Positions 46,711 through 59,564 of a DNA stretch of 64,000 nt are shown piece after piece. A program made the position numbers and the translations under genes. The notes beneath the pieces were generated by a model. The model saw nothing but the letters and a program-made list of their open reading frames with translations, was not told where the DNA came from and did no database searches. This stretch comes from Escherichia coli (GTDB lineage Bacteria > Pseudomonadota > Gammaproteobacteria > Enterobacterales > Enterobacteriaceae), in the NCBI RefSeq assembly GCF_036507355.1, contig NZ_AP027877.1; one strand, given 5' to 3'. Positions within the stretch are counted from its first letter, which is position 1; the number at the start of each line of letters is the position of its first letter.

Positions 46711-46786
46711 TGGCTCCTCTGACTGGACTCGAACCAGTGACATACGGATTAACAGTCCGCCGTTCTACCGACTGAACTACAGAGGA
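46711..46786 (-). tRNA. asnV: tRNA-Asn (GUU)
   Basis: Minus strand is a 76-nt tRNA with anticodon loop CTGTTAA and CCA end; identical to the copies at 57216 and 59041. Confidence 0.95.
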
Positions 46787-49081: not shown

Positions 49082-49118
49082 CAAAAAGCCCGCTATAAAA
49101 GCGGGCTTTTCAGAAATC

Positions 49119-49135
49119 TGGCTCCTCTGACTGGA
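49119..49135 (-). other. 17-bp fragment of the tRNA-Asn 3' end (island boundary repeat)
   Basis: tggctcctctgactgga matches the 3' end of tRNA-Asn; with the 5-bp flank aaatc it is a 22-bp direct repeat of 57211-57232. Confidence 0.8.
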
Positions 49136-49808
49136 TGCGGATTTTGTTGTAGTTTATTGAATTTAAATGATTTTTATGAGTAGAATAAAAATAAGGCCCT
49201 TAGAAAGGCCCCTCAGATATTTTTGCTTAAAAAGATGATGTAAGTCACATTTTCAGGGGCTGTTACCTGGAGGTCTTAAAACCAACGAGAGGTCGTCATT
49301 CCTGGCGTATAGCGGGAATGCACCAGACATACAGAAACAGGGACTTGCACCAGCTTTAATATAGCTGGCTGCACCAGATCCTGGCGCTGCAAAAGTCCAT
49401 GATTGCGCCAGATTCTGAGGGATTACATCGATCTGAGCCAGAGTTGTCCCTTTGGGTTATAGCCTTTTCAGGTCAGGTGCTGTTACCCTTAGCTGGCCTT
49501 TACCCTTTTCCTTTTGACCGTCGGCTATGTGCCAAAAGCGGAATTCCAGTGGTTCTAGAAAAGCTATCATTCCATGGTCAAATTTTGTCGATCACTGCAC
49601 TTATGGAACCGCCATAACATAGGTAGATAGTTGAAGATAGCTAGAACGATGATAGATGATTTTCTTTACAGGGCTGACTTCTAGTCTATCTCATGTAATA
49701 CTCTATATTATATCTAATGTACAATATTAATAGCATTGTGATGTATCGACAACATGGATAGTCCACTGCTATTAAAACTATAATGACATTTAATTGAGAA
49801 ATATAAAA

Positions 49809-50826
49809 ATGACTCTATTAGAAAAATTGTTATCAAAAGGATACTTTCCTAAAGAAGCTCTCCCTCCTTTCTCTACGGAAAAATATGCACGCGCAATTGT
49901 GAATGGATACGATAATCTTCCCCAATTATTTAGAACCGGAAAATTCATAAGTAAGTGCGCTATTCATAATATTTCCAGAAAAGGTACATTACGGAGAAAA
50001 CTTGGAATACCTAATCCCATCAACTTCTTTAGATTAAGTGAGGCAATAACTGAAAATTGGTACGATATATATGAATGCGCAAGTGAATCAACAATATCGT
50101 TGACAACTCCAGACCCTGCCAGCAATGGCGGAAGAGCATTCAACCCAAAGCATTCATTAAATGAGCTTCCAGATATTCATGCAAAACTTAGAAGTAAACA
50201 TAAATATATACTTAAAACCGATATAAGCAGATTTTACCACTCAATATACACTCATAGTATTGCATGGACTTACCATACAAAAGATATTTCAAAAAGAAAC
50301 AGAAGCAATAGTTTATTTGGCAATGTATTAGACAAGCATTCGCAAGATTCGCAAGATGGACAAACAATAGGGCTCCCCATTGGTCCAGATACATCACTTA
50401 TCATAGCAGAGTCTCTGTTATCAAATATTGATCTTAAGCTTAGCGAAAAAGGCATTAGCAATGGCTTACGTTATATAGATGATTATTTCCTAGGGTTCAA
50501 TACAATTGGGGAAGCAGAATCTGCATTAACAATAATGCAGGAACTGTTAAACGAATATGAGTTAGCATTGAACCCCTTGAAAACAGAAATCATACAATTA
50601 CCAATTGAATTCGAGCCATTAGCAATTTCAGAACTAAGGGCATTTTCATTTAGAGATACAGCTGGCGGTCAGAAATCAGATTTAATGCATTATTTCAACA
50701 TAGCTTTCAAGGCAGCAAAAGATTTACCAACGGAACCAATATTAAAATATGCAGTATCAAGGACATTTGAAGTAAATGTTACTGCTGAAAACTATCCTGT
50801 TTTTGAAAATTTTATATTACAATGTG
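49809..50826 (+). pseudogene. Reverse transcriptase, N-terminal 339 codons, interrupted by IS1
   Basis: RT motifs DISRFYHSIY, GLPIGPDTSL, YIDDYF (YxDD) and LNPLKTEI; the frame runs straight into the IS1 end at 50827. Confidence 0.8.
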
Positions 50827-50881
50827 GGTGATGCTGCCAACTTACTGATTTAGTGTATGATGGTGTTTTTGAGGTGCTCCA

Positions 50882-51157
50882 GTGGCTTCTGTTTCTATCA
50901 GCTGTCCCTCCTGTTCAGCTACTGACGGGGTGGTGCGTAACGGCAAAAGCACCGCCGGACATCAGCGCTATCTCTGCTCTCACTGTCGTAAAACATGGCA
51001 ACTGCAGTTCACTTACACCGCTTCTCAACCCGGTACGCACCAGAAAATCATTGATATGGCCATGAATGGCGTTGGATGCCGGGCAACAGCCCGCATTATG
51101 GGCGTTGGCCTCAACACGATTTTACGTCACTTAAAAAACTCAGGCCGCAGTCGGTAA
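50882..51157 (+). CDS. insA: IS1 InsA (91 aa)
   Basis: Zinc-finger N-terminus CPSC...CSHC; canonical IS1 ORF. Confidence 0.95.
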
Positions 51158-51579
51158 CCTCGCGCATACAGCCGGGCAGTGACGTCATCGTCTGCGCGGA
51201 AATGGACGAACAGTGGGGCTATGTCGGGGCTAAATCGCGCCAGCGCTGGCTGTTTTACGCGTATGACAGGCTCCGGAAGACGGTTGTTGCGCACGTATTC
51301 GGTGAACGCACGATGGCGACGCTGGGGCGTCTTATGAGCCTGCTGTCACCCTTTGACGTGGTGATATGGATGACGGATGGCTGGCCGCTGTATGAATCCC
51401 GCCTGAAGGGAAAGCTGCACGTAATCAGCAAGCGATATACGCAGCGAATTGAGCGGCATAACCTGAATCTGAGGCAGCACCTGGCACGGCTGGGACGGAA
51501 GTCGCTGTCGTTCTCAAAATCGGTGGAGCTGCATGACAAAGTCATCGGGCATTATCTGAACATAAAACACTATCAATAA
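51076..51579 (+). CDS. insB: IS1 InsB (transposase catalytic part, made as InsAB by frameshift)
   Basis: Canonical IS1 second ORF overlapping insA. Confidence 0.9.
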
Positions 51580-51602
51580 GTTGGAGTCATTACCTACAAT
51601 GT

Positions 51603-51881
51603 GTTACAGCTGACAGTAGCACATTAAAATACACCGTCAATCAGCTTATAAAATACAAAAGAATAGGTTATGTTCAGAACGTTGAGAACATTTCGCATAT
51701 TTTGAGACAATTAGCAATAACTGAAAGCTCACTTGGCCATGGACACGAAGTTGCTTATTGCCTATGGCTTTATTTGATACTACGCATCCCCATACCAGAA
51801 GTCGTCGTTAAAAATGTGGTACCAATGAGAGATCCATTTGTTGCAATTTTGTTATGCGATTGCAGGCAAAAAACCTCATGA
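51603..51881 (+). pseudogene. Reverse transcriptase C-terminal 92 codons displaced by IS1
   Basis: With one copy of the 9-bp duplication removed, the RT frame continues without stops from 51603 to TGA at 51879-51881. Confidence 0.7.
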
Positions 51882-52171
51882 CTTTTATACCTGATTTCTC
51901 AATTTATGAGCAAATGATGGTGATGGAAGAGCTATCGGGCGATATGTAGATTTTTGTCTATGAGATGCTTGCAAAAGGATGGTTTCAACCATTATCAAAC
52001 CAAAATCCAATTAGTCAAAATGAGTGTTATAGGTTCCTATTGAATTCAGGTGTTTTTTTCTATAATGAACATCTCTCATTAACTATTATGGCTGAAAGTC
52101 CAATTGATACAGATGGCTCGGCAGAGGGATTCAGTGGTTGAAATTAAAAATTATCTGTAAATAACTAACCC

Positions 52172-52210
52172 CCCTCCCTTTAATTTAATATTAAGGGAGG
52201 GTTGTGTTTC
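52172..52210 (+). terminator. Hairpin terminator downstream of the RT gene
   Basis: ccctccctt-(12 nt)-aagggaggg perfect 9-bp stem followed by ttgtgtttc; also marks a GC-content transition. Confidence 0.4.
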
Positions 52211-52449
52211 GATATACATATATGGGCTTTGGTGAATAAATCAGATTTGGGATAAACATCCCTGGAGACAGTTGCAGCTGTCAGGTAATACGCACGCTTT
52301 TTGCTCAGAACCCCATCAATGCGCCGCCAGCACTTTTGCAGCCAGCCCAGTCGGGTTACGCCGTCTGGACTCCCAACTTTTGATGATATCGACGCTGGTT
52401 CCTTAGGGTTATTGCGTAACGATTTATTCTGCGCCAGTCATGAAAGCCG

Positions 52450-53409
52450 TTATTCCTTCTTCCATTCGTGCGCGTAAACCTGCTTCACCCAGCGACCGCG
52501 CCCGTCGCCATGCCCCAGGTCCATCGCCACCATTGCCAGCGCCTCTTTTTCGCTGAATCCCTGCGCCAGATACCGGCGAATATCGTCCTGCGCCAGATAC
52601 CGGCGAATATCGTCCTGCGCCCAGGCGTAACGCAGCGAATGTGGGGAGTATTTGCCCGTCAGCCCCATACGCAAAGTCTGGTTGCGCCAGTATTTCATTG
52701 CCTGTTTAAGGCTTGCCGCATCAATCAGCCTGCCGTTGCGCAGTCCTGCCACCACAATGGCATTATCGAGCGCCCGTTTAACTGCGCCAGCATTCTGAAT
52801 AAGGGTATCGCGGGGCCGCCCGCCTTTGGTGCCAAACACGATGGTTAGCCGGGTGGCTCCACGTTCAAGCGACTGCCGCCACGTCAGCAATGAACGTGAA
52901 CAGCGTACCGCCTCCTGTGAACGTAACCCCATCAGCCGCGCCAGCTCCAGCGCTGCCGCCAGTCCTGCGTCTTTCAGCCGGGCAGTCTCTGCCATCTGTT
53001 GATAATATTCCGGCGTGATGGCTTTCCGTGTACCATTGCGGGATACGCCAGCCAGCCCCAGCGATTTATTCGATATCCGCTCACTCTGCGCCAGTTTTTC
53101 GCGCCCGGCCTGCGTCAGTATTTTACGGATAGCCGCCGTTTCGTTATGCAGCGTCTGTTTCTGAATACCCTGCGCCAGTCGCATCTGAATATACGCCTCA
53201 ATATGCTTCGCCTTTAAATGATGGACATAGCGTATCTGAACGTTCAGTTCCGTCAGTCGTTCGCAGAACCGTTCTGCCATGGCGATACGGTCATGGACAG
53301 TCTTGTGCGCCCCGCCAGCCTGCCGCGCCAGGTTTTTCATCTCTCTTTCCAGCATACCCATTTTGCTTTTCCTCTTATCTCGCTCCTGATTTTCACAAAA
53401 CCACAACAC
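52450..53409 (-). CDS. Tyrosine recombinase / phage-integrase-family protein with internal 9-aa tandem duplication (319 aa)
   Basis: C-terminal HSLRY...LGHGDGRGRWVKQVYAH resembles recombinase box II with catalytic Tyr; DDIRRYLAQ is duplicated through a 27-bp tandem repeat at 52561-52614. Confidence 0.6.
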   Translation of the reverse strand: MLWFCENQERDKRKSKMGMLEREMKNLARQAGGAHKTVHDRIAMAERFCERLTELNVQIRYVHHLKAKHIEAYIQMRLAQGIQKQTLHNETAAIRKILTQAGREKLAQSERISNKSLGLAGVSRNGTRKAITPEYYQQMAETARLKDAGLAAALELARLMGLRSQEAVRCSRSLLTWRQSLERGATRLTIVFGTKGGRPRDTLIQNAGAVKRALDNAIVVAGLRNGRLIDAASLKQAMKYWRNQTLRMGLTGKYSPHSLRYAWAQDDIRRYLAQDDIRRYLAQGFSEKEALAMVAMDLGHGDGRGRWVKQVYAHEWKKE

Positions 53410-54253
53410 ACAACGGATACAGCTTTCCCCGGCGCATAGGCCGATAGCCCCTGATTTTTGTCGGGGCTGCGAGCAGTACCTGAGCGCCGGGGCGACGGCT
53501 GTTGAGGTTTTGCGGGGTATCGGTTGTGCTCTCAGAGCAGCCGCCAGCGTGAGCTGGTCATCCCCCGGACCGTCCTGGTGGTCCCCCTCCGGTACTGGCT
53601 CATGTTCTCCTTTGGTGAATGAATGGTTGAAATAAATGCTGAAAAGCGACGTCAGAAGCTCGCCTGTGGCTGGAACAGTTGATATGACTGGTGCAGATGA
53701 AAATTTCTGCGGGCGTCAGTCTCTCACTCTGCGTGAGCGACTGACGCCCTGGTCTGGCGCAGGCGCTGAAAATTACACTCTGGTGCAGGATGGCGGCCAC
53801 GCGGCAGCAAATGCCTTCGGCAAATGCAGGCCGCAGCCCGTCATGTAAAGGGCGCTGGTAATCAGCAGGGTATAAGTGGGCCGGAGAAATTCCGGCAAAG
53901 AGAAACCGTGCAGCCGGTGAAGGCTGTTGCCGTTAAGCGATGACGATGAAGCCGTCCAGTGTATGTACTCTTAGCCTCAAACGCTTTCGCGTTCCGGTAT
54001 TGCGGAGGTCGTACCGGTAGCAGGGGGCTGGTCGTCCTGATAAATCAGGGGCTTCTTGCAGACCATGAAGCCAAAGGGGCTGTCAACCGACAGCTTATTG
54101 CAGGAGAGAGATTACACCGTAATTTCTGGCGCAGAAAGGGGAAACTCATTTTTCTGGAAATTGAGTTTCCCCCTGAATTTATGGAAAGTTTGTGAATGGA
54201 ACACTGCCGCGCTTCGCTTGTCGTCTCCCGGTGTGCGATTTGCTGTATCAGGA

Positions 54254-54502
54254 TCATCGCTTTCGCATGAACCTTTCCAGGCGATTACCTTTGCCGTCGA
54301 AGTATCTGGAAGGCCAGATGATCTCTGGAGCTATCTCCAGCGCATCTGCAATAAGTTTTTCTCCGCGCGGCCACGGGCGGGAAAGTGCATTTGCCAGTGT
54401 GGAAGAACTCAACCCTGCTTTACGCGATACCTCAGCCAGTGAGGTCCCTTTCTTTCTTAATCCGGCAATGATATCTGCCGGATGCCAGTCATCTTTATTC
54501 AT
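54254..54502 (-). CDS. Ner/Nlp-family DNA-binding protein (82 aa)
   Basis: DWHPADIIAGLRKKGTSLAEVSRKAGLSSSTLANALSRPWPRGE closely matches the Ner/Nlp family signature. Confidence 0.8.
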   Translation of the reverse strand: MNKDDWHPADIIAGLRKKGTSLAEVSRKAGLSSSTLANALSRPWPRGEKLIADALEIAPEIIWPSRYFDGKGNRLERFMRKR

Positions 54503-54614
54503 TGTTTTCCCCTGTTTCCAAATCTGGTTTTTCTGACTTTAGGAACTCTAAAGGCAATGAATCTTAAGGAATGCTAAAGATGGTGTCAATGTAACTATTA
54601 ACCAAACAGGTTAT

Positions 54615-54914
54615 ATGATCCCTGAACGACTCAAGGCAGCGAGGTTGCGGGCTAATCTCACCCAGGAACAACTGGGCGTTCGTGCAGGCATCGCCGAAGA
54701 TACGGCCTGCTCCCGGCTTTCTCAGTACGAAAGTGGAACACACAAGCCCACATTCAAAATGGTTTGTGCCTTTGCTCGTGTTTTGCATGTTCCTGAATGT
54801 TACTTCTATGCACAGGAAGACACTTTCGCCGAAGCGATTTTAAGGCTGTATGACGGTGAAACTGTGCAGTGGAATATAAAAACAGAGATCGTTCATCATA
54901 CTGAACGGGTATAA
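54615..54914 (+). CDS. XRE-family HTH regulator, copy 1 (99 aa)
   Basis: HTH region LTQEQLGVRAGIAEDTA...YESGTHKP; paralogue of the next gene. Confidence 0.7.
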   Translation: MIPERLKAARLRANLTQEQLGVRAGIAEDTACSRLSQYESGTHKPTFKMVCAFARVLHVPECYFYAQEDTFAEAILRLYDGETVQWNIKTEIVHHTERV

Positions 54915-55013
54915 ACCTCTTGCCTCATCCATCCTCTTTATGAACTCTAAAGAAAAATGCTCTTGAGGAATGCTAAAGATTACCGTCATAAATTCAAACT
55001 GATGGTAATTTCA

Positions 55014-55283
55014 ATGATCCCCAAACGCTTAAAAGAAGCCAGATTGCGGGCTAAACTCACTCAGGAAAAATTGGGGGTACTGGCGGGTATTGAAGAAGCC
55101 ACGGCTTATTCGCGTCTGTCACATTACGAGAGTGGTACGCATAAACCAACTTTTGATCTCGTTTGTGAGTTTGCCCGAGTACTCAATGTACCAGAATGCT
55201 ATTTCTATACGGTGGATGATGATTTCGCGCAGGCGGTGTTGGATCTTCATGCCAGGTGGACAAAGAGAACTACGGAAAGATAG
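55014..55283 (+). CDS. XRE-family HTH regulator, copy 2 (89 aa)
   Basis: MIPKRLKEARLRAKLTQEKLGV... about 60% identical to copy 1; start aligned to copy 1. Confidence 0.65.
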   Translation: MIPKRLKEARLRAKLTQEKLGVLAGIEEATAYSRLSHYESGTHKPTFDLVCEFARVLNVPECYFYTVDDDFAQAVLDLHARWTKRTTER

Positions 55284-55304
55284 ATCGCAGAAAATAAAAA
55301 ACCC

Positions 55305-55390
55305 CGCTGGTGAGGCAGGGTTCTTTATTTTTCGTTCTCAGACTGCTTATAGCGACCTGAGCAACGTTGCGCGACAATACAATCCTAGCA
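55305..55390 (-). ncRNA. Candidate antisense sRNA antitoxin (Orz/IstR-like), predicted from promoter, repeat and terminator
   Basis: Minus-strand promoter-like elements (-35 ttgcaa, palindromic, at 55419-55424; -10 taaact from 55396-55401); transcript would begin inside repeat 55369-55392 and end at a hairpin plus T-run near 55300-55335. Confidence 0.3.
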
Positions 55391-55418
55391 GAATAAGTTT
55401 AACCCGCTTTGTTTCCCG

Positions 55419-55448
55419 TTGCAAACAAACGCTCCCGGTCTTTATAAT
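55419..55448 (+). promoter_or_regulatory. Sigma70-like promoter for the toxin mRNA (-35 TTGCAA, 18-bp spacer, -10 TATAAT)
   Basis: ttgcaa at 55419-55424 and tataat at 55443-55448 on the plus strand; gives a 5' UTR of roughly 180 nt. Confidence 0.45.
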
Positions 55449-55634
55449 GCCAGACGCTGGGTTTATCACGTTTCAGGCCAGACCGATTTCAAGCCCTGAC
55501 TGCCGGACGGGTGGTGCCGCAGGCAGTGCCCCGGTCTGGAGCGTGATAATACAATCCTAGCAGATGTGATCCTGCGCCGACAGGCAATGTAAGGGTAAGG
55601 TGCAGGCGTTGCGCTCCTTTCATAAGGAGAGCGG

Positions 55635-55724
55635 ATGGACATGTTGACGCGAAAGCTGATCGTGCTCATCGCCGTACTGGAGCTTTTGCTGGCTCTGCTG
55701 CGGTTGATTGATCTGTTGAAATAA
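55635..55724 (+). CDS. Candidate type I toxin, 29-aa hydrophobic peptide MDMLTRKLIVLIAVLELLLALLRLIDLLK
   Basis: ATG at 55635 five nt after AGGAG; single predicted TM helix; similar in length and composition to ZorO/DinQ/TisB-type toxins; followed by a hairpin terminator. Confidence 0.55.
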   Translation: MDMLTRKLIVLIAVLELLLALLRLIDLLK

Positions 55725-55744
55725 TTCTCAGATTGAAACGCACC

Positions 55745-55770
55745 AAAGGGGAAACACCCGTTTCCCCTTT
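55745..55770. terminator. Bidirectional hairpin terminator between the toxin ORF and the integrase gene
   Basis: aaaggggaaac-accc-gtttccccttt with A/T runs on both sides. Confidence 0.6.
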
Positions 55771-55788
55771 AATAAATACGCTGCTTTG

Positions 55789-57066
55789 TTACGACGCCTG
55801 TTTCAGGCGGCGGGCATACTGGTAAGCTGAAACATACCCGTCACTGTTTGCATCAAGATAATCTGACCACCATTGCATCATCTCGATCCGCTCTTCCAGA
55901 TATTCAGCCTTGTGAATATACGCAGCGCGGACGCTGTTTCTTTCCTGGTGACTCATTTGTTTTTCAATCGCTTCTTTGCTCCACAGCCCCGATTCACTCA
56001 ACGCACTACATGCCATCGCCCGGAAGCCATGCCCGCAGACGTCTTTTTTGGTGTCATAGCCCATCACCCGCAGCGCTTTATTCACGGTGTTGTCGCTCAT
56101 GCACTTATCCTGGTCGTACTCGCCGGGAAAGATAAAGGCCAGATGACCGGAGAGGGCTTCGATCTGTTTCAGGATCGCAATTGCCTGATCCGACAGCGGC
56201 ACGATATGTTGAATTTTCATTTTCGACCCCCGGTAAGAGAAGCGCACATTTTCGATCTGCTCGCGTTCTTCCGCGATCACCCACAGCTTTTGCTGCCAGT
56301 CGATTTCACTCCAGCGAGCAAAGCGTAGCTCGCTGGAGCGCACAAAAAATATCAGTGACAACTTAAGGGCGTATTTCGTCAGCAGCCTGCCGCAGTAGTT
56401 ATCCGTACGGGTTAAAAGCTCTGGCAGCCTGTCCAGCGACAGGGCCGGGTAATGATTAGTCTCTGGCGCAGCAAATTCACCATCCAGATACAGCGCGGGG
56501 TTCGCTTTGAGCAACTGCTTTTTCATCGCGTAGTGCATGATGTCGGTGACATAGTTTTTCAGCCGGGCGGTGATCTCCAGAAAGCCTTTGCTCTCCACCT
56601 TACGCAGCGTGACCAGCAAATCCTCTGTTTCGATCTCCCCGATAAGGCGATCCCCGATATCCGGGAAAACATACATTTCCAGTCTGCGCATAACCGTTTT
56701 CGCGTAATGTTCAGACCAGCGTTTATGCTCGCCATGCCAGTTAGTGGCGACCTGGCTGAACGTCTGTCCGTTTTTCTTCTTCTGTTTCTCCGTCTGCTTC
56801 ACCGCAGCAGGATCGACGCCTGCATGAATGTTATTGCGTGCCGCTTCCCGTAAACGGCGAGCCTGCAACAGCGAGATCCCCGGGTAGGGGCCAAAGGCCA
56901 GCTTTTTCTCTTTCCCGTCGATACGGTACTTCATGTACCAGAGTTTTGAGCCATTAGGTTTGATCAACAGGTACAGTCCGGAACTGTCTGTCATTTTGAA
57001 AGGTTTGTCGGAGGGTTTGATCTTGCGAATCGTGGTATCTGTTAATGCCATAGCGGGGGGCTCCAT
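55789..57066 (-). CDS. P4-family tyrosine integrase (425 aa)
   Basis: N-terminal arm-binding domain (LTDTTIRKIKPSDKPFKMTDSSGLYLLIKPNGSKLWYMKYR) plus C-terminal catalytic domain; adjacent to the tRNA-Asn 3' end. Confidence 0.9.
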   Translation of the reverse strand: MEPPAMALTDTTIRKIKPSDKPFKMTDSSGLYLLIKPNGSKLWYMKYRIDGKEKKLAFGPYPGISLLQARRLREAARNNIHAGVDPAAVKQTEKQKKKNGQTFSQVATNWHGEHKRWSEHYAKTVMRRLEMYVFPDIGDRLIGEIETEDLLVTLRKVESKGFLEITARLKNYVTDIMHYAMKKQLLKANPALYLDGEFAAPETNHYPALSLDRLPELLTRTDNYCGRLLTKYALKLSLIFFVRSSELRFARWSEIDWQQKLWVIAEEREQIENVRFSYRGSKMKIQHIVPLSDQAIAILKQIEALSGHLAFIFPGEYDQDKCMSDNTVNKALRVMGYDTKKDVCGHGFRAMACSALSESGLWSKEAIEKQMSHQERNSVRAAYIHKAEYLEERIEMMQWWSDYLDANSDGYVSAYQYARRLKQAS

Positions 57067-57215
57067 TTGCTCACCGAACCGTGAGGCCCCCGATTAAGCC
57101 CACAAAAACTATGGATGTCAAGAAACCCGGTAGCCTCTTGTGAGACAACCGGGTAAAGATAAGTTCTTGTTTTTTAACTATCTCGAGACTCATAGAGATG
57201 TCTCAAAACTAAAAT

Positions 57216-57291
57216 CTGGCTCCTCTGACTGGACTCGAACCAGTGACATACGGATTAACAGTCCGCCGTTCTACCGACTGAACTACAGAGG
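57216..57291 (-). tRNA. asnU: tRNA-Asn (GUU), island integration target
   Basis: 76-nt minus-strand tRNA identical to the other copies. Confidence 0.95.
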
Positions 57292-57452
57292 AATCGCTGT
57301 TGAGGCACATCTTAACGGCGAAAAATCTTTTGTCAAACCCGATTTTTAAATTCCCCAACTGTTTGCCGTTTCTATCAACAGTTTGTTGCATTTGCAGACA
57401 ATTTGTTGGCGAAAATCTTTGCAGCTTTGCTGATTCTCCCTCATTATTTGAA

Positions 57453-59040: not shown

Positions 59041-59116
59041 TCCTCTGTAGTTCAGTCGGTAGAACGGCGGACTGTTAATCCGTATGTCACTGGTTCGAGT
59101 CCAGTCAGAGGAGCCA
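59041..59116 (+). tRNA. asnW: tRNA-Asn (GUU)
   Basis: tcctctgtagttcagtcggtagaacggcggactgttaatccgtatgtcactggttcgagtccagtcagaggagcca. Confidence 0.95.
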
Positions 59117-59564
59117 AATTTTAGTTTTGAGACATCTCTATGAGTCTCAAGGCAGTTAAAAAATAAAAATTATTTTTACCCGGTCACTTTGTAAAAAAGC
59201 GACCGGGTTTTTTGATATCTGTGTTTCGTGCGCTTAATCGAGCCTCACGCTTCAGTGAGCAAATTGCCCTCCCCAACAGACATCACGATTTGCAAGGTCA
59301 AAATCTCTGTTCCATGAAGTACCGTACAAAGATAAAGAGAACAATGCTTTATGCGGGATGTTGCTGTCGTGTCTTTATCGGGAAACTATACGTAATTACC
59401 ACTTGCCTTCTGTAATCAGAAAAAGAAGACCTGGAATTTTAATAAATATTATTTCTCTGGGGGAATTTTTATAATCAATATGACGAGTTGAATATTATAT
59501 TTTTTATAAGGATTATATGAGATTAAAGAAATCTGCCATAAAGACAGATTTCTTTAAAATATAA

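Follow-up and report, generated by a model that had tools for sequence, protein, structure and literature searches.

The segment between cbl and the tRNA-Asn gene asnU at positions 49136-57211 of the window (the whole stretch of 64,000 nucleotides of Escherichia coli DNA analysed here, from contig NZ_AP027877.1) is inserted DNA, polymorphic for presence and absence, with precise empty sites. We consider it very probable that it is a 7.3-kb mobile genomic islet placed there by its integrase and later joined by a 768-bp IS1, and that it combines a backbone for maintenance and control with a swappable defence cargo, dead in this copy. Islands of this family occupy four tRNA-Asn genes, their cargo is modular, and the cargo of the window copy has decayed.

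The islet is bounded by two exact copies of the 22-mer AAATCTGGCTCCTCTGACTGGA, at 49114-49135 and 57212-57233, which enclose 8,076 bp; a match was found in 0/100 shuffles. The initial annotation had the left copy in place and set the right one 1 bp off, at 57211-57232, and its reading of the latter as the 3' end of an intact tRNA-Asn agrees with the gene found at 57217-57292 (-). Given this tRNA position, the right copy consists of the last 17 nt of the tRNA and the 5 nt downstream. The other two tRNA-Asn(GTT) genes of the window, at 46711-46786 (-) and 59041-59116 (+), have near-copies of the 22-mer (2 and 1 mismatches). The features of the two ends are as follows:

49114-49135, no strand: attL, the displaced original asnU 3' end (17 nt) plus 5 nt; left repeat copy, abutting the cbl terminator
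49136-49543, no strand: left arm of the island, non-coding and presumed to be the P' arm of attP, kept in relatives with unrelated cargo
55789-57066, minus strand: P4-type tyrosine integrase (Pfam Arm-DNA-bind_3, Phage_int_M and Phage_integrase; PHROG 1, 3e-64)
57212-57292, minus strand: attR (repeat 57212-57233) and the intact tRNA-Asn gene asnU (57217-57292), the island supplying the last 17 nt of the tRNA

Counted from the ATG at 57051, the start annotated in the genome G4/9, the integrase has 420 aa; it carries an arm-binding domain at its N-terminus and a tyrosine-recombinase catalytic domain at its C-terminus (Arm-DNA-bind_3 7e-25, Phage_int_M 5e-23, Phage_integrase 1e-17). Its gene (55789-57051/57066, minus strand) had already been placed at the tRNA-proximal end by the initial annotation; it begins some 150 bp away from the 3' end of the tRNA, and its promoter-like site at 57177-57206 adjoins the att core. 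The islet would have entered asnU by site-specific recombination carried out by this enzyme, with a crossover within the 17-nt tRNA-Asn 3' end common to attP and all four asn tRNA genes. Integration would then have given the tRNA a new 3' end from the island (attR) and left the old one beside cbl (attL). What attP and attB have in common is the 17-nt tRNA end and AAAT, separated by a variable base; that the repeat is an exact 22-mer in the window is due solely to the C found at that base in both copies. In the genome A30, at the base preceding the 17-mer, the chromosomal T was kept in the attL copy and the island C is found in the attR copy; the crossover in A30 therefore took place inside the 17-mer. 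The left arm is 88% identical to that of A30 and 85% to that of AMSHJX01. It contains a minus-strand terminator-like hairpin (49193-49212) and four direct copies of TGCRCCAG within 49319-49411, and from its sequence it may be the P' arm of attP.

The reconstructed cbl-asnU-yeeO junction was searched for in 5,426 complete E. coli genomes, and in 5,177 of them (95%), K-12 derivatives included, nothing interrupts it. In 3FA, a K-12-like strain, asnU lies 37 bp from the end of cbl, in agreement with the K-12 layout given by the initial annotation, and its view of the roughly 8 kb at asnU as inserted accessory DNA, rather than backbone conserved in all close relatives, is borne out. At least 80% of the island is present in one genome only, G4/9, whose copy lacks IS1 and is 5 SNPs apart. 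The flanks are near-identical too, thus a single insertion was inherited vertically by both. The cargo has a GC content of 35-39%, versus about 49% in the flanks. All of the contents first listed for the segment (P4-type integrase, RT, IS1, tyrosine recombinase, Ner-like gene, HTH pair and ZorO-like toxin ORF) were located.

The same backbone with its own att duplications is found at asnV (A30, SC477), asnT (CREC-2), asnW (FEX669) and asnU (SC434). Since these related islands have their own tRNA 3'-end repeats at several asn genes, insertion was site-specific and repeated. The compact gene order, with intact integrase and att repeats, recurs at four different tRNA-Asn genes, and one genome has it two times; the island family is rare. 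The cargo is located between the second recombinase and attL, and that of the relatives is LmuA and LmuB (Lamassu), a CBASS cyclase with a 2TM effector, a Tmn-like protein or unrecognised genes. This space would thus be a cargo slot holding anti-phage systems in this asn-tRNA island family, a tendency and not a rule, because two of the six sampled cargo types have no recognised defence function. In strains of the AMSHJX01 type, a larger asnT island associated with a T6SS has the same attL arm, cargo slot and recombinase/EFASI module as its far end. At asnW, E. coli carries a fixed fossil of this integrase lineage, about 220 bp long.

In the window, the slot is occupied by a reverse transcriptase (RT) gene and the IS1 inserted in it:

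49809-50826, plus strand: 5' part of the RT cargo gene (codons 1 to about 339), DRT4/DRT6-class (Abi/UG class 1)
50827-51594, plus strand: IS1 (InsA/InsB ORFs 50882-51579), inserted in the RT gene
51604-52141, plus strand: remainder of the RT; the first frame stops at 51881 and the C-terminal domain lies in another frame from 51878

Judged by its sequence, the RT, whose gene has a promoter-like site at 49755-49784, is a single-gene system of the DRT4/DRT6 class. Its full-length matches to the PADLOC models are tied (Drt4 2e-148, Drt6 4e-148), and among PDB structures 9wy8 (1.6e-60) is ahead of UG15, AbiP2 and AbiK, the UG15 structures reaching only 1e-19. With 209.6 bits, it stays below the curated Drt4 cutoff of 450 (NCBIfam NF041749). 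IS1 (768 bp) is flanked by a 9-bp target duplication, TACAATGTG, at 50818-50826 and 51595-51603, and it is a later simple insertion, missing from the G4/9 copy. A frameshift after an A6 run, common to the window and G4/9, splits the protein into 431 + 87 aa, and the window copy alone has a nonsense codon (TGG>TAG at 51947-49, W24*). An intact single ORF of about 510-540 aa, with the RT domain and the C-terminal helical domain, is present neither in the window nor in G4/9. The gene is thus a pseudogene, dead three times over through IS1, the frameshift and the nonsense codon.

The conserved backbone begins at about the NadS-family fragment and continues with a second recombinase and an RNA motif:

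52316-52402, minus strand: NadS-family gene fragment (RefSeq annotation of G4/9 and A30)
52450-53361, minus strand: second tyrosine recombinase (Pfam Phage_int_SAM_2 and Integrase_1, 5.6e-58 and 9.4e-34)
53470-53603, minus strand: EFASI RNA (Rfam RF02957; 112.4 bits versus a gathering score of 51.2)
53604-54137, minus strand: structured, highly conserved non-coding stretch upstream of EFASI

Candidate catalytic residues of the second recombinase (R, K, HxxR, H, Y) were read by eye from its own sequence, and an in-frame 27-bp tandem duplication at 52560-52613 adds 9 aa between the HxxR and Y motifs, which may impair the enzyme. EFASI is on the strand of the recombinase gene, 108 nt 5' of its annotated start (53361); it is present in 7/7 loci, each of the six relatives scanned having it immediately 5' of the recombinase gene, and the STAXI motif is absent from the window island and from these relatives. 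The stretch at 53604-54137 is 90-96% identical in relatives, versus 87-92% for the remaining backbone; it has a fold z of -4.0 and no conserved ORF, and may be a long leader.

This module could bear on how the islet spreads. It is invariant across the island family, and the same 1.8-kb module, its boundaries matching (~52409-54210), is also found in a T6SS island at tRNA-Asp. A homologue is encoded by 50 of 72,556 plasmids, and 13 of the 50 are conjugative. According to the Rfam entries as quoted in PMC12370729, EFASI is often near STAXI and integrases, and STAXI is linked to ssb, topoisomerase and antirestriction genes. The islet could then be an IME-like hitch-hiker on a conjugative plasmid or ICE, linked to it for instance by cointegration with, or recognition by, elements bearing related STAXI/EFASI/XerDC-type modules. 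We regard this as unlikely, since no family member has a relaxase, STAXI or a coupling-protein gene, the homologues are rare on plasmids, and each island has one EFASI for which no partner site was identified.

The mobility genes of the island are the two recombinases only, IS1 being a secondary passenger. Neither phage genes nor genes for replication or transfer were revealed in the island by the ORF inventory, PHROGs, NCBIfam or PADLOC, and no AlpA/Hef/Xis-type excisionase was found among its ORFs with the inventory, NCBIfam and PHROGs. A scan of metagenome contigs for the attP junction gave a single match, which is chromosomal, and neither that junction nor an excised circle came to light. 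The present excision competence of the islet and its route of transfer between cells are thus points on which we infer rather than observe. It might be a deletion remnant of a larger island that has lost independent movement and spreads solely through homologous recombination between flanking core genes; spread by flanking recombination is reported for the HPI (PMC2606025). The larger asnT island of AMSHJX01-type strains, which shares the attL arm, slot and recombinase/EFASI module, and the fossil at asnW would both fit, yet flank recombination cannot yield a compact order, integrase and att intact, that recurs at four tRNA-Asn genes and in two copies within a single genome, and we find this origin quite improbable.

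We give still less credence to a pared-down phage satellite, which a helper phage would package once the integrase has excised it, a possibility raised by Hochhauser et al. for integrase-only islands (PMC10121019). With its small size (7.3 kb), P4-type integrase, repressor-like module and defence cargo, the islet does resemble P4-like satellites and PICIs. However, primase, capsid-redirecting, packaging and cos/pac-related genes are absent, and PHROGs match its integrases and regulators only. The P4 satellite genes (alpha primase/helicase, Sid/Delta/Psu) have no match in PHROGs or NCBIfam, and no spare ORF is large enough. Among 50,697 phage records, the second recombinase is all but missing, and the integrase matches in IMG/VR lie at contig edges only, without the backbone. 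That the segment is ancestral DNA lost from most strains is a formal possibility and nothing more, effectively refuted by the counts of precise empty junctions and by the duplicated tRNA end with its adjoining integrase, and further opposed by the GC content of the cargo.

An integrase-inserted islet remains the reading we favor, and the rest of its backbone carries regulators and a putative type I toxin-antitoxin:

54254-54502, minus strand: Ner/SfsB-like HTH regulator whose gene diverges from the XRE pair (NCBIfam SfsB 118.6 bits; PHROG 769 repressor)
54615-55283, plus strand: tandem pair of paralogous HTH regulators, XRE/C-protein-like (54615-54914 and 55014-55283; PADLOC control protein 2e-22 and 8e-24)
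55296-55392, minus strand: candidate OrzO-like antitoxin sRNA (Rfam RF02083 match 55296-55371; terminator 55301-55316)
55419-55724, plus strand: zorO-like type I toxin gene, its 29-aa ORF (55635-55724; MDMLTRKLIVLIAVLELLLALLRLIDLLK) preceded by a long 5' UTR

The SfsB score of the Ner-like protein is under the cutoff of 150; its gene has a promoter-like site at 54561-54589 and a terminator-like hairpin at 54138-54172, and a copy of a 45-nt repeat lies ahead of each XRE gene. This divergent Ner-like/XRE switch probably controls the recombination genes. The toxin ORF shares 25/29 residues with ZorO (PMC6669753), including the ALLRL motif, and is preceded by a promoter-like TTGCAA-18-TATAAT at 55419-55448. 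The sRNA scores 47.8 bits against RF02083, under the gathering score of 60. The segment adjoining its match (55369-55392) recurs at 55541-55564 in the toxin 5' UTR with 22/24 bases, which would provide the sRNA with an antisense target. Like zor-orz, the pair combines a 29-aa toxin that keeps the essential ALLRL motif with a long 5' UTR, a candidate sRNA in divergent orientation and a repeated segment that would allow antisense pairing. Unlike zor-orz, it is carried on an island and not at the yehL-yehK locus, its sRNA falls below the Rfam threshold, and it is a diverged paralogue whose DNA identity, about 79%, is confined to the toxin part. It probably serves to keep the backbone in the lineage.

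The islet belongs to a kind already known, that of the asn-tRNA islands (HPI, pks) and the integrase-only defence islands. In HPI and pks, a P4-type integrase lies beside the tRNA, the 17-nt tRNA-Asn 3' end is duplicated and any identical asn tRNA is usable (PMC8209727). The attachment site, the 17-nt direct repeats, the choice of asn genes and the integrase by the tRNA are alike here, whereas the island is 7 kb long instead of 36-54 kb, it carries phage-defence cargo instead of siderophore or genotoxin synthesis, and it has an additional EFASI/Integrase_1 module and a type I toxin-antitoxin. Its integrase lineage is also distinct, other E. coli integrases matching partially with about 68-77% DNA identity. 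The P4 genes include alpha, sid, delta and psu, with cos, and the P4 slot lies between psu and int; none of the five is found here, and the slot is between a recombinase gene and attL. For the hotspots of P4-like satellites and P2 prophages, Rousset et al. 2022 (PMC9122126) report the exchange of diverse anti-phage systems at one locus, and on that account these elements and the islet both have a conserved mobile backbone, a single variable defence locus and a P4-type integrase.

Integrase-only islands at E. coli tRNA hotspots were described by examples, their mode of mobilisation unknown, by Hochhauser 2023 (PMC10121019). The islet shares with them the tRNA hotspot, the recombinase gene(s), the defence system and the lack of further mobility genes: it has recombinases only, and its family carries a DRT4/6-class RT (inactivated here) or, in relatives, Lamassu, CBASS and Tmn. 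The main text of that paper does not mention yeeO/cbl, and an asn-tRNA island family with a fixed backbone and an EFASI module was not found in it.

As for the cargo of the window copy, DRT4 (UG15) and DRT6 (UG12) enzymes carry out protein-primed, template-independent ssDNA synthesis and act by abortive infection (PMC12783706). The island RT resembles them in its PADLOC matches of about 1e-148 and in its AbiK/Abi-P2/UG15 structural class, and it differs in falling short of the NCBIfam Drt4 cutoff, in its better fit to 9wy8 and in being a pseudogene. If intact, it would make ssDNA in the same protein-primed, template-independent manner, leading to abortive infection.

The feature at asnU is an ordinary insertion at an asn tRNA gene, textbook in kind. 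The 22-mer AAATCTGGCTCCTCTGACTGGA, which the initial annotation had placed at both borders, occurs there exactly, at 49114-49135 (attL) and at 57212-57233 (attR), the second position having been one base off. These are its only two exact copies in the window, near-copies lie at two other tRNA-Asn genes, and none of 100 shuffles of the sequence contained a match. The intact tRNA-Asn claimed for the right border was recovered by ARAGORN.

tRNA-Asn(GTT) genes predicted by ARAGORN
46711-46786, minus strand: tRNA-Asn(GTT)
57217-57292, minus strand: tRNA-Asn(GTT), asnU, at the right border
59041-59116, plus strand: tRNA-Asn(GTT), asnW-like

The gene order of the window (tRNA-Asn, nac, cbl, island, tRNA-Asn, yeeO, tRNA-Asn) corresponds to the K-12 region asnV-nac-cbl-asnU-yeeO-asnW in reversed orientation. 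As the initial annotation stated for K-12, cbl lies directly beside asnU in a K-12-like genome, its end being 37 bp from the tRNA gene with nothing between. A query joining 500 bp of left flank, up to and including attL, to the 500 bp right of attR found a contiguous empty asnU site in 5,177 of 5,426 complete E. coli genomes (~98% identity), which establishes the segment as inserted accessory DNA. At least 80% of the island was present in only one of these genomes, that of the human commensal G4/9, at the same site and with 99.9% identity. Since the empty junction is common and the island is found in G4/9 only, the 8 kb are clearly not a conserved backbone lacking empty alleles, and the island interpretation is supported. 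The GC content of the cargo part is 35-39%, against ~49% in the flanks.

The P4-family integrase announced for the tRNA-proximal end is the first gene inward, and its 420 aa comprise Arm-DNA-bind_3, Phage_int_M and Phage_integrase domains. The 17-mer of the asn islets is reportedly also the core found in the HPI. The 17-bp repeats of the pks island have this same core, and integrases of the P4 type classically target asn tRNA genes, the pks island and the HPI being examples (PMC8209727). The junctions give attP as AAAACTAAAAT[C/T]-TGGCTCCTCTGACTGGA-TGCGGATTTT and attB at asnU as TTTTCAG[A/G]AATT-TGGCTCCTCTGACTGGA-CTCGAACC. The attP junction of an excised circle is predicted to read ...CTCAAAACTAAAATC-TGGCTCCTCTGACTGGA-TGCGGATTTTGTTG..., and the restored attB would be cbl terminator-AAAT[T/C]-tRNA. 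Strain A30, which carries a related islet, has the chromosomal T just ahead of the 17-mer in attL and the island C in attR, which puts the A30 crossover inside the 17-mer; the window repeat is an exact 22-mer because both copies have C at this position.

Everything listed in the initial annotation (RT cassette, IS1, tyrosine recombinase, Ner-like gene, duplicated HTH genes and type I toxin candidate) was found, in the following arrangement.

Order of the islet (49136-57211) from the tRNA inward
P4-family integrase
55290-55740: zorO/orzO-like toxin-antitoxin locus
two tandem, paralogous XRE/C-protein-like regulators, with a Ner/SfsB-like regulator divergent from them
53604-54137, minus strand: structured non-coding region
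EFASI RNA motif
52450-53361, minus strand: second recombinase (Integrase_1 type)
NadS-gene fragment
49809-52141: cargo, DRT4/DRT6-class reverse transcriptase (RT)
left arm, non-coding, ~400 bp, adjoining attL
49114-49135: attL

Five SNPs and a 768-bp IS1 at 50827-51594, flanked by a 9-bp target duplication, TACAATGTG, set the window island apart from that of G4/9. The absence of IS1 from G4/9 and its target duplication identify it as a later simple insertion into a native islet of 7.3 kb, and rule out an IS1-mediated deletion of the RT 3' end. The conserved left arm contains four direct copies of TGCRCCAG (49319-49411, 24-34 bp apart), and three or four inverted copies lie upstream of EFASI (53688-54133); those inside the recombinase gene are accounted for by their coding for Leu-Ala-Gln. 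Only two of the four left-arm copies are kept in relatives, which speaks against recombinase sites; they could be protein-binding sites or due to chance. By analogy with known families, the Ner and XRE regulators probably form a bistable switch that controls the recombination genes.

No AlpA/Xis-type gene was found in the islet, nor any relaxase, primase, capsid or packaging gene in its ORF inventory searched with NCBIfam and PHROGs. In IMG/VR the relatives of the integrase are confined to the margins of predicted proviruses and lack the islet backbone, and the islet fails the membership tests for P4-like satellites, which makes a phage satellite unlikely. Few plasmids encode the second recombinase (50 of 72,556), and phage records essentially lack it. 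The search of metagenome contigs for the attP circle junction returned a single match, an attL-type junction in another enterobacterial chromosome, and the attL-junction pattern, searched in one genome per species, turned up nothing beyond short remnants, in E. albertii and in a Citrobacter.

The islet belongs to a family sharing the gene order Int, HTH, HTH, divergent Ner-like HTH, EFASI, Integrase_1 recombinase, cargo, attL. Of the 5,426 complete genomes, 84 have its integrase lineage (DNA identity and length coverage both at least 80%) and 25 its close backbone. The members at other sites and in another sub-lineage each have their own duplication of the tRNA end, and the data support an integrase that can use any asn tRNA gene for insertion, the four 3' ends being identical.

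Family members and their cargo
asnU, window and G4/9: DRT4/6-class RT
asnV, A30 and SC477, own tRNA-end duplication: in A30, a Tmn-like 1,210-aa NTPase
asnT, CREC-2 and ~23 similar genomes, own tRNA-end duplication: a 438-aa protein with no matches (L004:6439-7755, the CREC-2 locus)
asnW, FEX669, own tRNA-end duplication: CBASS cyclase, 2TM effector and TPR protein
asnU, SC434, different sub-lineage and different cargo, own tRNA-end duplication: three small unknown proteins (L007:2865-4553, the SC434 locus)
AMSHJX01 type: Lamassu LmuA and LmuB

SC477 has two members at adjacent asn genes, and in A30 asnU is empty and asnV occupied. In the SC477 locus (L008:1-12800) the integrase and the second recombinase of the asnV copy are frameshifted and the asnU copy is intact. 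A RelE-type toxin/antidote pair of A30 lies outside the slot, between the HTH genes and the integrase. Four of the six cargo types sampled are recognised defence systems. The CREC-2 and SC434 cargo genes have no PADLOC match, and the 438-aa protein of CREC-2 has no Pfam match and nothing above 16 bits in NCBIfam; because the same slot holds Lamassu, CBASS, Tmn or DRT in relatives, both are candidate unrecognised defence genes. The data support a modular cargo that is exchanged next to attL. Its left boundary is similar in two relatives (~49534-49543), the right one varies (52305, 52413, 52473), and the left arms of more distant members differ. Site-specific, integron-like cassette boundaries are unsupported by this pattern, and the unsharp boundaries on the recombinase side favour homologous or illegitimate recombination over integron-like capture.

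The RT matches the PADLOC Drt4 and Drt6 models over its full length (~1e-148); it scores under the curated NCBIfam Drt4 cutoff and, when tested for membership, did not qualify as a genuine, intact DRT4. Among solved structures 9wy8 comes nearest (1.6e-60), ahead of UG15, Abi-P2 and AbiK. Together, these profile and structure-sequence matches place the RT in the Abi/UG class-1 group. DRT4 and DRT6, characterised members of the group, carry out protein-primed, template-independent ssDNA synthesis and abortive infection (PMC12783706), and judging from these families an intact RT would act in abortive-infection defence. G4/9 and the window share a break at an A6 run (caaaaaacc, within window 51870-51949), which divides the gene into pieces of 431 and 87 aa. 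Against the Drt4 profile the two are exactly colinear, and one added A would fuse them, so that the split is most simply read as a frameshift. Two more lesions are found in the window alone: IS1 interrupts the gene near codon 339, and a TGG>TAG change creates a nonsense codon at 51947-49 in the C-terminal piece. With frameshift, IS1 and nonsense codon combined, the defence gene of the window is dead. This gene also holds two of the five SNPs relative to G4/9. An RT-associated ncRNA, as in DRT2, DRT9 and retrons, was considered for the upstream non-coding region and rejected: Rfam gave nothing significant there, and the first ~400 bp (49136-49543) are 85-88% conserved in relatives with Tmn or Lamassu cargo and, being conserved beside unrelated cargo, belong to the backbone.

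The toxin candidate is a 29-aa ORF with 25 of 29 residues identical to ZorO and with the essential ALLRL motif kept (PMC6669753). Ahead of it lie a promoter-like TTGCAA-18-TATAAT and a long 5' UTR. A divergent sRNA with its own terminator scores 47.8 bits with the Rfam OrzO-P model, short of the gathering score (60), and a 24-nt segment that recurs in the toxin UTR would provide the antisense pairing site. Compared with canonical zor-orz (locus L010), which in O157:H7 lies between yehL and yehK, the island locus is ~79% identical in the toxin part only. Matches to this part occur in 3,398 of 5,426 genomes, the island version in 25. As in known families, such a toxin probably stabilises the islet post-segregationally.

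The EFASI motif (RF02957) scores 112 bits, against a gathering score of 51, and the second recombinase (Pfam Phage_int_SAM_2/Integrase_1) follows 108 nt downstream on the same strand. All seven loci examined have the motif directly 5' of the recombinase gene (105-112 bits). STAXI, which according to the Rfam statement quoted in PMC12370729 often accompanies EFASI, is absent from these seven loci. No functional study of EFASI or PF12835/PF12834 was found in the literature, and a PDB sequence search with the recombinase gave no match. Its gene contains a perfect 27-bp tandem duplication (52560-52613), common to G4/9, which adds nine in-frame residues (AQDDIRRYL twice) in the stretch that separates HxxR from the presumed catalytic Tyr; the A30 homologue is shorter (294 aa vs 303), consistent with no duplication there. 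The duplication may impair the enzyme. The ~530 nt upstream of EFASI (53604-54137, minus strand) are non-coding and 90-96% conserved, against 87-92% for the flanking backbone genes, and as RNA they fold far better than shuffles (z = -4.0). A hairpin with a 17-bp perfect stem lies at 53711-53749, with one of the five G4/9 SNPs (53733) inside it. The "hypothetical proteins" annotated between EFASI and the Ner-like gene vary in length, with 25% identity between sub-lineages, and probably correspond to no gene.

The 1.8 kb of recombinase, EFASI and leader (window ~52409-54210) recur elsewhere (85-95% identity), ending at almost the same positions.

Other copies of the recombinase/EFASI/leader segment
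L006:8960-10525: strain VTB96777v, T6SS island at tRNA-Asp, beside a different P4-type integrase
L003:10879-12653: far end of a larger T6SS-associated island at asnT

These copies suggest a discrete, exchangeable module, and the matching boundaries in the tRNA-Asp T6SS island fit a functional unit. Within the family the EFASI/recombinase pair is invariant and directly beside the variable slot. One scenario, which we consider improbable, is that the pair forms an uncharacterised recombination module that would load or exchange defence cassettes, or would serve transfer by joining the islet to a conjugative element or to a different island. If true, it would account for the movement of "integrase-only" defence islands and assign a function to the orphan EFASI motif.

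A trace of the same integrase lineage also appears to be widespread in E. coli. The 3' flank of asnW (window 59117-59340; L005:5962-6148 in the K-12-like locus) is ~81-84% identical to the attR arm and first integrase codons (window 57016-57216), with a 10-bp deletion across the integrase start codon, and is matched in thousands of E. coli genomes, K-12 derivatives and G4/9 included. It looks like the fixed fossil of an island of this lineage.

Variable defence slots in the mobile backbones of P2 and P4 were reportedly described by Rousset et al. in 2022, and "integrase-only" defence islands at tRNA hotspots, their mobilisation unexplained, have been described as a class (Hochhauser et al. 2023, PMC10121019). 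The asnU islet belongs to known kinds and, as a member, is new and apparently undescribed. What it adds is descriptive: a compact, rare asn-tRNA islet family defined by a fixed backbone and a defence-cargo slot, a specific place for the orphan EFASI motif within a defined mobile element, just 5' of an Integrase_1 recombinase, two sampled cargo types of no known function as candidate new defence genes, a clear case of in-place defence-gene decay by three independent lesions, and, in the asnW flank of K-12, an apparent fossil of the same island lineage.
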